A stretch of DNA of 64,000 nt from NCBI GenBank assembly GCA_046290465.1, contig JBKAGP010000001.1, positions 3,776,001 through 3,840,000 of the forward strand, read 5' to 3'. Positions within the stretch are counted from its first letter, which is position 1. Every line of letters begins with the position of its first letter. The notes beneath the pieces were generated by a model. It ran no database searches and had not been told where the DNA came from. It saw nothing but the letters and a program-made list of their open reading frames with translations. The translations under genes and the position numbers were made by a program. This document shows positions 35,551 through 42,846 of this stretch, one piece after another. This DNA is from Planctomycetota bacterium. Its GTDB lineage: Bacteria; Planctomycetota; UBA1135; UBA2386.

Positions 35551-35766
35551 CGACGCCAGCCGAGCGACCGATCAAGCGGTGCACGCGCGGCGCTGCTATC
35601 GTGCCCCATGTTCGACCGGGATCCTCGATGCCACCGCAGCGTGCTCGCCACGCTGCGGCTGCTGACCGCCGCCTGCACCCGGGATGCAACGCCCCACCGC
35701 CGACCAGCTCAGCCCGCGCGTTCACTTTCGCGAACCGATCGCTCCCCTCCACGTAGAATGCGCGCC

Positions 35767-36534
35767 ATGATCCGTTCGACCCTTCCGGTGGCCTTCGCGC
35801 TCGCCGCCGCTGCCTGCAGCGGCACCGAGCGCCACCCGCAGGCCGCCGTCGAGACGACGACCCGGAGGCAGATGATGCGACCCGAAACCGACACCCACGT
35901 ACGGCCGGCGATCGACCTCGAAGCGCCCGCCGCGTTCCAGACCGCCACGTTCGCCCTCGGTTGATTCTGGGGACCCGACTCCCGGTTCGGGAGTCTCGAC
36001 GGCGTGCTGCGCACCCGCGTCGGCTACTGCGGCGGCACCACCGACGCGCCGACCTATCGCAAGATCGGCGACCACGCCGAGACCATCCAGATCGACTTCG
36101 ATCCCAAACGCATCAGCTACGACCGGCTGCTCGAGATCTTCTGGACCACGCACAACCCGTGTCGCACCGCGTGGAGCCGTCAGTACATGTCGGCGATCTT
36201 CTACGCCGACGACGCGCAGCGCGACGCGATCGAACGCACGCGCAAGCAGTTCGTCGGTGAGGACAAGGAGGTCCAGACCGAGGTCCAGCGCCTCGAGCGG
36301 TTCTGGATCGCCGAGGACTATCACCAGAAGTACCGGCTGCGGCACGAACCGGAGCTGCTCGACGAGATCCGCGCGATCTACCCGGACGAACGCGACTTCG
36401 TCGACTCGACCGCGGCGGCGCGGCTCAACGGCTACCTCGACGGGCACGGCGGCCGGCGCCAGCTCGACGCCGAGATCGGCAGGCTGGGCCTGACCGAGAA
36501 GGGCCAGCAGCACCTGCGCAAGCTCTGGCGCTGA
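35767..36534 (+). CDS. msrA: Selenocysteine-containing peptide-methionine (S)-S-oxide reductase, lipoprotein (UGA = Sec at 35962-35964)
   Basis: Reading through TGA gives TATFALG-U-FWGPD...RTRVGYCGG...PTY...DHAETIQIDFDP...QYMSAIF...FWIAEDYHQKY; TGA is at the catalytic Cys of GCFWG. Confidence 0.92.
35977..35995 (+). promoter_or_regulatory. Putative bacterial SECIS of msrA
   Basis: GACTCCC-GGTTC-GGGAGTC perfect stem starting 12 nt after the UGA; loop starts with G. Confidence 0.8.
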
Positions 36535-36636: not shown

Positions 36637-37314
36637 CTACAGCGGCTGCGTCGGCGTGCGCTTGAGCAGCCAGGTGCCGAAGTAGAACAGCGGCGTGTCG
36701 GCCAGCGCGACCAGCGCCTTGAACAGCCACAGGTCCAGGACCGTCGACAGGATCTGGTCGGACTCCCAGACGCCCGCGAACAGCACCAGCACCACCAGCA
36801 CCGAGTCGAGCAGCTGTGAGAGCACCGTCGACGCGTTGTTGCGCAGCCAGAGGTGGCGGCCGTTCGTCAGGTCCTTCCAGAAGTGGAACAGGCGAACGTC
36901 GACGAACTGCGCGAACAGGTAGGCCGTCATCGAGGCGGCGATCACGCGCCACGTGTTGGAGAAAGCCTGCCCGTAGGTCTCGTCGCCGACGGGGCTCCCC
37001 TCGATCGCGGGAAACTGTGCCCCGAGCCACAGCGCCAGCAGCGCGAACAGCGACGCGGCGAAGCCGGCCCAGACGACGCGGTTGGCGCGGCGTCGGCCGT
37101 AGAGTTCGGACAGCAGGTCGGTCGCCAGGAACGTGATCGGGTACGGCAGCGCCCCGGCCGACAGCGTGAACACCTTGAAGCCGAGATCGACCGTCAGGAA
37201 CTTGTTGGCGATCAGGTTGCAGGTGACCAGCGACGACAGGAACACCGCCGCCAGCACCAGGAACACGAAGTCGACCGGCCGGTCGCCCGCGTTGTCGAAC
37301 TCGACCGCCGTCAT
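36637..37314 (-). CDS. Queuosine precursor transporter (VUT/YhhQ family)
   Basis: NLIANK, YPITFLATDLLSELYG, ASMTAYLFAQFVDV, WLRNNAST..SQLLDS, LADTP. Confidence 0.9.
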   Translation of the reverse strand: MTAVEFDNAGDRPVDFVFLVLAAVFLSSLVTCNLIANKFLTVDLGFKVFTLSAGALPYPITFLATDLLSELYGRRRANRVVWAGFAASLFALLALWLGAQFPAIEGSPVGDETYGQAFSNTWRVIAASMTAYLFAQFVDVRLFHFWKDLTNGRHLWLRNNASTVLSQLLDSVLVVLVLFAGVWESDQILSTVLDLWLFKALVALADTPLFYFGTWLLKRTPTQPL

Positions 37315-37317
37315 CGC

Positions 37318-37959
37318 CTACTCCCAGCGCAGCGTCTCGATGAACCCGATCACGCCGCCACAGTTGATCTGGTGGCACTGGATGCAGGCGTTGACCACCG
37401 CGTTGTAGGTCTCCTTGTCGGGCGCCTCGTCGAACGCACGCACGGTCGCGAGGTAGCTCTGGGCGCGGCCGTCGTAGCCTTCGTTGCGCTCCTTGGGGTT
37501 GGTCGGCCACGCGCACCGCATCGTGCGATGCGTCGGGAACAGCTTCTCGACCGACTCGCCGTTCTTGACGCGCAGACGGTTCTCCTTCAGTTGATCGACG
37601 AACCGACGCATCAGCACGGCGAGTTCGCTGTCGCCGTTGGGGTTGCGCGGCGACTCGATCAGGTGCCCAGGCGCACCCGGCTTGTTCGGGTCGAGCACCG
37701 TCTGCAGGTTGCAGTCGGAGTCGTCGTAGGCACCCTGCCCGGACGGGTTGTCTGCGGCCCCTCCCTGCTCGGGCCGATCGGCGCCGGCGGCACCGGTCGG
37801 GTTGTCTCCGGATGGGGCCTGACCGGACGGGGTCTGACCGGATTGGGCCTGACCGGATTGGGCCTGACCGGATTGGGCCTGGCCAGATTGCGTGGGCTCG
37901 TCCGCGGTGCACGCGACGAAGAACAGGGAGAGGAACGACAGCGTCAGGAATCGGGACAC
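37318..37959 (-). CDS. Lipoprotein c-type cytochrome (C-terminal CxxCH) with QSGQA-repeat linker
   Basis: GTG 37959, lipobox FVA|C, NPNGDSELAVLMR, CIQCH near the C-terminus. Confidence 0.7.
   Translation of the reverse strand: MSRFLTLSFLSLFFVACTADEPTQSGQAQSGQAQSGQAQSGQTPSGQAPSGDNPTGAAGADRPEQGGAADNPSGQGAYDDSDCNLQTVLDPNKPGAPGHLIESPRNPNGDSELAVLMRRFVDQLKENRLRVKNGESVEKLFPTHRTMRCAWPTNPKERNEGYDGRAQSYLATVRAFDEAPDKETYNAVVNACIQCHQINCGGVIGFIETLRWE
37808..37890. repeat. In-frame 15-bp tandem repeat (about 5 units) encoding QSGQA
   Basis: GGCCTGACCGGATTG units with variants. Confidence 0.85.
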
Positions 37960-38002
37960 GGCAGTCGCGATGCTGGGCCCCGATCGCTCGCCTTGCAAGC
38001 CG

Positions 38003-38172
38003 CTAGCGGGCAAAGCCCCGTCCGCAAGCGTACACGCCGCTTTCGCGATCACGGTTGGCAGCGCGTCCACTACCTGGACGCGCTCCTAGCGGGCAAAGCC
38101 CCGTCCGCAAGCGTACACGCCGCTTCCGCGATCACGGTTGGCAGCGCGTCCACTACCTGGACGCGCTCCTAG
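38003..38172 (-). mobile_element. Two head-to-tail copies of the 83-bp CTAG-bounded element
   Basis: CTAG at 38003, 38086 and 38169; the two units differ by 1 nt; reverse orientation relative to 17414-17500. Confidence 0.8.
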
Positions 38173-42195: not shown

Positions 42196-42846
42196 TCAGC
42201 GCAGCGAACGGATCGCCGCCAGCGTCTCCTCCGGCTCGGGGCGCCGCGTGTAGTCCGGGTCGGCGTCGATCCGGTGGATGCGGCCGCCGGCCGCGACGAC
42301 GATGCGCGTCGACAGCGGCAACTCCCACGAATCGTCGCCGTTGTGGTCCGGCAGCGAGATGCCGGCACCGAGATAGACCTGGCGCAGGTCCTCGGGCAGC
42401 GTGAACACCAGTCCGAGCTGGCGCGCATACGCGTTGCCGGAGTCACGGAGCACGCGGAACGTCAGGCGATGGCGTTGCCGGACCTCGGCGTTCTTCTCGA
42501 TCGACTGCGGTGAGATCGCGACCAGGTCGGCCCCGAGCTTCTGCAACTCGTCGTGAACCTGCTGCAGAGCGTACAGCTCCGCGTTGCAATAGGGTCACCA
42601 GACGCCGCGGTAGAACGTCACGACCAGCGGCCCGTCACCGTGCAGGTCGACGGCTCGCACGGCGTGGCCGTTCGTGTCGGGCAGCTCGAACGGCGGCAAT
42701 GCCGCGCCGGGTCGGGGCAGGCGGTCGAGGATCCCGGAGTCGCGCAGGTCCTGGGTGGCGCGGTTCATGATCGCCTTGGCTTCGGGCGGCGTGCGCTCGG
42801 CCGAGGCCTGCTTGAGACGGTCCAGTCGTTCTTTCAGAGTCGGCAT
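42196..42846 (-). CDS. Selenocysteine-containing AhpC/TSA (peroxiredoxin-like) protein, UxxC motif (UGA at 42597-42595)
   Basis: Track ORFs 42595..42846 and 42196..42546 are in frame; read-through gives GPLVVTFYRGVW-U-PYCNAEL...GADLVAISPQ...DYTRRPEP, matching the FYRGxWCPYCN pattern. Confidence 0.9.
42564..42582 (-). promoter_or_regulatory. Putative bacterial SECIS of the AhpC/TSA gene
   Basis: GCGGAGC-TGTAC-GCTCTGC (7 bp including one G-U) starting 12 nt after the UGA; G at loop position 2. Confidence 0.75.

Follow-up and report, generated by a model that had tools for sequence, protein, structure and literature searches.

A selenocysteine-containing MsrA with a predicted lipoprotein signal, encoded by a gene split at an in-frame TGA in a planctomycete genome

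We analyzed a 64,000-nucleotide stretch (hereafter the window) of the genome of a Planctomycetota bacterium, which consists of a single contig of 6.59 Mb (70% G+C, 94% complete), and found that two open reading frames of the forward strand form one msrA coding sequence (35767..36534) of 255 amino acids with selenocysteine (Sec) at residue 66, as indicated by in-frame translation and by profile and structure-database matches. We concluded that this is a single intact gene, not two, that its product is a methionine-S-sulfoxide reductase A, and that the catalytic residue is almost certainly selenocysteine. The combined evidence makes it quite probable that the product is an exported Sec-lipoprotein MsrA of the Alkaliphilus oremlandii type, with a cytoplasmic form likely made in addition and with recycling likely proceeding through Cys132 and Sec-containing TlpA-like and DsbD proteins. 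Both the recoding and the family are already known, and in this respect the result is the correct re-annotation of a mis-split gene; Sec-MsrA, which the original prediction had described as a known kind of protein, is indeed among the prokaryotic selenoproteins listed in the available text of a 2026 review (PMC13188914). The internal start, Cys132, and the Sec-bearing reductants had no place in that prediction and are described here in addition.

Translation from ATG 35767 places the TGA at 35962–35964 (codon 66) within the segment ATFALG-U-FWG, that is, at the catalytic Cys position of MsrA, exactly where it had been proposed; this assignment is supported by the translation, by the orthologues, and by the Cys/Sec alignment of homologues. 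Beyond this single internal TGA, the frame stays open for the whole of its 255 codons to the terminal TGA at 36532–36534 and continues as MsrA, passing the PF01625 and TIGR00401 thresholds, as had also been expected. The prediction that gene callers split such genes held for this copy as well: the standard ORF listing gave two pieces, the first ending at TGA66 and the second comprising 176 amino acids from 36004. These two pieces, together with the nearest database proteins, which are mostly fragments of ~156–184 amino acids with some full-length entries showing W at residue 66, would speak for a genuine stop (a pseudogene, a sequencing error, or a split gene) or for a Trp codon under another genetic code. 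We consider either exceedingly improbable, because the same codon is TGA in all 18 close orthologues and in 54 loci across phyla, because the hairpin described below goes with TGA and not with a Cys codon in a set of 90 loci, and because the catalytic motif is missing from the downstream piece taken by itself. The reading as Trp, in particular, was rejected, since homologues carry Cys at this site and TGA terminates 3,001 of the 4,892 called genes in this genome.

The apparatus for selenocysteine insertion, which the original prediction implied to be encoded elsewhere in the genome, was found in full by a genome search: selA, selB, selD (which has an in-frame TGA of its own), and tRNA-Sec for selC; selA was found in 60 of the 61 genomes of the group. 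A close orthologue of this MsrA (E 2e-60 or better) was present in 18 of 60 relatives, these being the orthologues that share the TGA. For broader comparison, we used 90 distinct loci, comprising the relatives' loci and the best 80 of 234 from the species collection after removal of duplicates; eleven canonical-type MsrA loci (L028–L038) were excluded from the count. The catalytic codon was TGA in 54 of these loci and TGC or TGT in 36, and the pairing of Cys with Sec anticipated for aligned homologues was thus observed, with the reservation that related loci are not independent, so that p-values are overstated.

A perfect hairpin had been noted 12 nt downstream of the TGA, and its position was borne out at 35977..35995 of the forward strand. 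The element, GACTCCCG-GTT-CGGGAGTC, begins 12 nt past TGA66 and can be drawn as 7 bp with a GGUUC loop or as 8 bp with a GUU loop; its position, conservation, and agreement with consensus rules identify it as a bacterial SECIS hairpin. With at least 7 Watson–Crick pairs and a G in the first two loop positions as the genome-wide background criterion, similar hairpins were rare downstream of both Cys codons (111 of 19,974) and called TGA stops (34 of 3,001). In a fixed register, a stem of at least 4 pairs with G at loop position 2 was seen at 50 of 54 TGA loci versus 5 of 36 Cys loci. Moreover, synonymous codons tracked the stem: the Gly codon in the stem was GGG at 51 of 53 TGA loci versus 11 of 36 Cys loci, and the Ala codon was GCC at 17 of 17 versus 5 of 21. 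The stem of the present gene uses AGT and GGG, which account for 1.9% of Ser codons and 10.5% of Gly codons here, respectively. Among 20 hand-picked TGA loci, 84% of cells paired, eight cells had two-sided changes, and none of 500 shuffles scored as high, a covariation figure that is inflated because the loci are related. The 69 nt after the TGA, taken as a whole, showed no excess stability over shuffles (z −0.22); thus, what supports the SECIS element is its position and conservation rather than its folding energy. According to the available text of the same review (PMC13188914), the bSECIS model comprises a loop of 3–9 nt, a stem of 4–16 bp, a G in the first two loop positions, a spacing of 16–37 nt, and an energy below −7.5 kcal/mol; the hairpin agrees with every one of these rules and differs from the consensus in nothing of substance. 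Together, the sel genes, a TGA that falls at a conserved Cys position and is shared by the orthologues, and a hairpin that follows the bSECIS rules are what is looked for in a selenoprotein gene, and there is very little doubt that SelB and Sec-tRNA would read UGA66 by means of the hairpin 12 nt downstream.

In profile searches, the protein scored 143.1 bits against PF01625 (E 1e-41; cut-off 23.7) and 120.6 bits against TIGR00401 (cut-off 108.1), which defined an MsrA catalytic domain at residues 59–194 (35941..36348, forward strand). It is followed by a C-terminal helical domain (36349..36531, forward strand) of the type found in the A. oremlandii enzyme, CoMsrA: PF20939 alone gave 20.0 bits, below its cut-off of 23.7, and the domain is indicated by the helices of the predicted model and by its similarity to 4LWJ. 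The best solved relative was CoMsrA itself (4LWJ; E 6e-55, 44% identity), matched over its full length by residues 58–244. A model of residues 50–255 with Cys replacing Sec reached a pLDDT of 94.9 and a TM score of 0.88 against 4LWJ, compared with ~0.6 against E. coli MsrA and canonical MsrAs. The active-site residues, mapped with the CoMsrA list given in the available part of PMC4333827, were all present (U66, W68, Y97, E105, Q139, Y140, H186, and Y189), and Y97, E105, Q139, Y140, and H186 were invariant in the 90-locus set, which includes the best 80 of the 234 matches. Judged by sequence and predicted structure, the protein is a member of the known Alkaliphilus (Clostridium) oremlandii Sec-MsrA family, and by homology Sec66 would very probably attack Met-S-sulfoxide in envelope proteins and release Met, as in CoMsrA. 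A different assignment, to the VPGUxxT type 2 thioredoxin-like family (NF041383), was rejected: that family likewise has an MsrA-like U-F-W segment, but the match was weak (37.7 bits, far below the cut-off of 275), and the genome's true member is located elsewhere (362.9 bits).

The likeness to CoMsrA (PDB 4LWJ–4LWM and 4U66; PF01625 plus PF20939) thus extends to the GUFWG motif, the catalytic and helical domains, and the active-site residues. CoMsrA as described in the available accounts is a protein of 209 amino acids that has neither Cys nor a signal; its activity exceeds that of the Cys form 20-fold, and its reductant is glutaredoxin, not thioredoxin (PMC4479559, available text). In contrast, the planctomycete MsrA has a predicted lipoprotein signal, a start-like Met in the linker that follows, and two cysteines, Cys88 and Cys132, and its genome encodes a Sec-DsbD and Sec-TlpA-like proteins. 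The mature protein therefore has more than the catalytic residue alone that defines the 1-Cys/1-Sec class, and the extra Cys88 and Cys132 indicate that, although it belongs to the CoMsrA fold family, its mechanism may not be of the 1-Sec type.

The N-terminus, MIRSTLPVAFALAAAA|C17, contains a basic n-region, a hydrophobic core, and a lipobox as scored by our own heuristic; these form a predicted lipoprotein signal peptide (35767..35817, forward strand) with the lipobox Cys17 at 35815–35817, and the signal peptide and lipobox (AAA|C) originally proposed were thereby recovered from the sequence. The −3 residue of this lipobox is Ala; the commonest residue at that position is Leu. Both lgt and lspA were found in the genome. 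A hydrophobic N-terminal segment is shared by all 18 orthologues, and 13 of them have the lipobox Cys, the exceptions being L010, L011, L012, L020, and L027: four have W near that place, and one has neither residue. The four with W (L010, L011, L012, and L020, from same-genus genomes) have this residue, and no Cys, closing the hydrophobic segment, and their proteins are thus likely anchored or released differently. Export of the full-length protein is highly probable on the strength of these features, and lipidation at Cys17 is probable, if somewhat less so. Lgt and LspA would anchor the preprotein made from ATG 35767 through Cys17, placing the enzyme at the outer face of the inner membrane or, after onward transfer, at the outer membrane. 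A signal-like N-terminus was scored by the heuristic in 75 of the 90 loci (best 80 of 234 included), with similar frequencies in TGA (48/54) and Cys (27/36) forms, so that export appears to be a trait of the family and not special to this copy. The original description of the enzyme as exported and membrane anchored stands as a prediction, whereas its characterization as unusual was overstated. An MsrP-type domain was not found in this genome. Some Deltaproteobacterial (Desulfobacterota-type) Sec-MsrAs (L083, L086, L088, and L100) carry twin-arginine-like signals with the motif RR-x-F/M-x-K, which suggests, from sequence, Tat export of a selenoprotein at these loci.

The region upstream of ATG 35767 bears on where translation begins. 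A −10-like box, TAGAAT, lies at 35754..35759 of the forward strand, 7 nt upstream of this ATG, and it was singled out by the frequency of TANNNT in the clade: such a box occurs 6–8 nt before the signal-peptide ATG at 10 of 19 clade loci, compared with ~9% of 3,314 ATG starts in the genome. A sigma-70 scan found no full match upstream of ATG 35767, only this box. Its distance from the ATG fits a leaderless transcript and would favor the start at 35767 over ATG 35758, and a promoter giving a leaderless msrA transcript is likely. It might be argued instead that the internal ATG at 35872 or 35875 is the sole start, the enzyme being cytoplasmic and the upstream hydrophobic stretch untranslated, given that GGAGG stands 6 nt before ATG 35875, that ATG 35767 has no Shine–Dalgarno sequence, and that CoMsrA itself lacks a signal. 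However, the open upstream frame with its hydrophobic core persists in every one of the 18 orthologues, the lipobox Cys persists in most of them, and the −10-like box recurs before the upstream ATG at 10 of 19 clade loci; we therefore regard an internal start as the only start as very improbable and retain ATG 35767 as the start of the exported form.

The same internal site could nevertheless provide a second, signal-less isoform. GGAGG at 35864–35868 precedes two consecutive ATG codons (Met36 and Met37), which together form the candidate start (35864..35877, forward strand) identified from sequence and clade comparison; initiation at ATG 35872 or 35875 would, slightly better than evenly in our estimate, give a cytoplasmic isoform of 219–220 amino acids. 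The genome contains two MsrA matches and one MsrB match, all three with a lipoprotein-type signal followed by a Met-containing linker, and the profile search found no signal-less MsrA or MsrB in this genome. The other two, a Cys-type MsrA (L007:1264-2010) and the MsrB (L120:1246-1899), are likewise predicted lipoproteins with a linker Met. A linker Met occurs at 21 of 23 clade loci, where ~12 would be expected, and at 22 of 26 signal-bearing MsrB loci (30 MsrB loci examined); among other predicted lipoproteins, it occurs in 60 of 150. The start-like score was reached by 25 of 30 linker Mets (21 of the Sec type and 9 of Cys-type paralogues), compared with 10 of 89 tether Mets in other lipoproteins, and local RNA folding was weaker at the former (−3.0 vs. 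−11.1 kcal/mol). The residue after the linker Met was T, P, N, or S in 27 of the 30. Outside the clade, where 52 loci were signal bearing, a strong Shine–Dalgarno sequence (−6 kcal/mol or better) was found at 22 of 50 linker Mets versus 191 of 1,507 other linker codons; within the planctomycete clade, such a sequence was present at only 4 of 27 linker Mets, this copy included. An upstream matrix failed to separate the linker Met from its neighbors (72% over threshold, median rank of Met 0.57, p 0.17); since neighboring linker codons are nearly as start-like, part of the signal reflects linker composition. For the Neisseria MsrA/B protein PilB, a truncated cytoplasmic form was once proposed and was not seen by later authors, as stated in the available text of PMC6372556.

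Cys132 (36160..36162, forward strand), in the motif H-N-P-C, emerged from the 90-locus alignment as a candidate resolving cysteine. It was present in 27 of 29 Planctomycetota loci, whether of Sec or Cys type, and in none of the 61 others (within the set that includes the best 80 of 234), whereas Cys88 was present in 14 of the 29. The equivalent residue of CoMsrA in the alignment is Val82, and Cys132 lies four residues ahead of the CoMsrA stretch 86–91, which moves by 6–7 Å in the dimer (PMC4479559, available text). On sequence grounds, a resolving role is plausible, and the chances are about even that Cys132 would resolve the selenenic acid to an Se–S bond. A simpler reading holds that the protein is an exported lipoprotein only and a 1-Sec enzyme like CoMsrA, regenerated through a dimer or by glutaredoxin-like attack, with neither the linker Met nor Cys132 having any role in localization or recycling. 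CoMsrA, after all, is recycled by glutaredoxin with no Cys of its own (PMC4479559); Cys132 is absent from all 61 loci outside Planctomycetota; and a tether Met is found in 40% of lipoproteins anyway and is not distinguished from its neighbors by the upstream matrix. This reading nonetheless seems rather unlikely, because Cys132 is kept among Planctomycetota while neighboring residues vary, three Msr families, unrelated or only distantly related, share the linker Met, which carries a Shine–Dalgarno sequence in other phyla, and a genome without the internal start would have no signal-less MsrA or MsrB among the matches found. We favor the exported Sec-lipoprotein with a likely second start and Cys132 as a candidate resolving residue.

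Candidates for the electron supply of such an enzyme were found elsewhere in the genome. In its sole DsbD (L119:433-2871; genome ~4518361–4520799), the first position of the C-terminal CxxC is encoded by TGA (F-N-U-G-S-C); 27 of 30 related loci likewise have TGA at this codon, and a DsbD match with TGA was present in 17 of the 19 genomes having this MsrA. In the DsbD hairpin of this genome, the G usually seen at the first two loop positions is missing. Four TlpA/ResA-like genes encode W-U-x-P-C, two of them with clear signal peptides. UxxC thiol:disulfide interchange proteins and TlpA-type selenoproteins are already listed in the 2026 review (PMC13188914, available text). We proposed, as somewhat the better bet, that electrons would flow from cytoplasmic thioredoxin to DsbD and on to an exported TlpA-like protein, the latter two both with UxxC motifs. 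An operon of msrA with its partner was rejected, since msrA has a divergent ORF on one side and the convergent yhhQ on the other, with no reductant gene adjoining it, and the flanks of the 98 loci surveyed yielded neither a DsbD nor a TlpA match. In addition, Sec-DsbD occurs much more widely than this MsrA, so that their co-occurrence is not specific, and two genes with glutaredoxin domains, the kind of reductant used by CoMsrA, are present in this genome; for these reasons, the relay is rated only slightly more likely than not. Comparable systems are the CcdA-Etrx-MsrAB2 system of Streptococcus pneumoniae (PMC3914529) and PilB of Neisseria (PMC6372556), in which, according to the available texts, electrons reach an Msr outside the cytoplasm through a membrane carrier and a protein of the thioredoxin fold. 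Those systems, however, rely on Cys, their MsrA and MsrB are canonical and fused, and their partners are part of a fusion or encoded alongside; here, by contrast, a CoMsrA-type MsrA is encoded by itself, and Sec is present at each predicted link.

Several further observations concern the neighborhood and the genome at large. On the reverse strand, 36637–38070 contains the convergent yhhQ queuosine-precursor transporter gene (TIGR00697) along with an unnamed, lipoprotein-like ORF bearing one C-x-x-C-H motif, and both stay beside msrA in several same-genus genomes. A probable second selenoprotein of the window, a 216-residue AhpC/TSA-like redoxin with W-U-P-Y-C, is encoded at 42196–42846 on the reverse strand (TGA 42597–42595); its TGA is followed by a hairpin, and standard calling again gives two ORFs. 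The genome appears rich in selenoproteins (L121–L140): in-frame TGA was seen in genes for four TlpA-like proteins, a thioredoxin-like protein, a two-Sec VPGUxxT member, a rhodanese lipoprotein, HMA lipoproteins, deiodinase-like, Prx, Bcp, SelL-like, AhpD-like, and MetE-like proteins, and two FG-GAP-like repeat proteins, many of the candidates having signal peptides. The scan behind this list was a rough filter: many of its 79 candidates were false, and it overlooked SelD and DsbD; 22 Sec candidates were checked against NCBIfam. Outside the planctomycete clade, msrB is adjacent or fused to this type of msrA at 18 distant loci (e.g., L050, L054, L065, L079, and L111). Canonical-type MsrA matches with TGA were seen in other genomes of the order (L037 of G057, and G017, G051, and G044); L037 is an MsrB-MsrA fusion with U-F-W-G and possibly represents a separate Sec-MsrA lineage. 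In G068, a genome of the same family, an MsrB match (C49:141330-141653) contains a single in-frame TGA.

In the openly accessible literature searched, we found no title or abstract on an exported or two-start Sec-MsrA. The available text of the 2026 review (PMC13188914) has no mention of periplasm, signal peptide, lipoprotein, or Planctomyc, and that of a 2022 review (PMC9312934) adds nothing further on location. Sec-MsrA is a catalogued and experimentally proven bacterial selenoprotein, and the variant form found here matters more than the recoding: the sole characterized member of the family is a signal-less 1-Sec enzyme that works through glutaredoxin, whereas most loci examined here look exported. 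If Cys132 has the proposed role, it would be a new position for the resolving cysteine of MsrA, and if the internal start is used, msrA would show dual localization of Msr enzymes through two start codons. More speculatively, and with considerable doubt, we suggest that the lineage may run an all-selenium envelope repair chain: Sec-DsbD would feed Sec-TlpA, and Sec-TlpA a lipid-anchored Sec-MsrA whose active-site loop has newly gained a resolving Cys, and single msrA and msrB genes would supply both compartments by leaderless starts for export and internal starts for the cytoplasm. Should these inferences hold, the lineage would serve as a test case for reduction outside the cytoplasm by a selenium-based chain.
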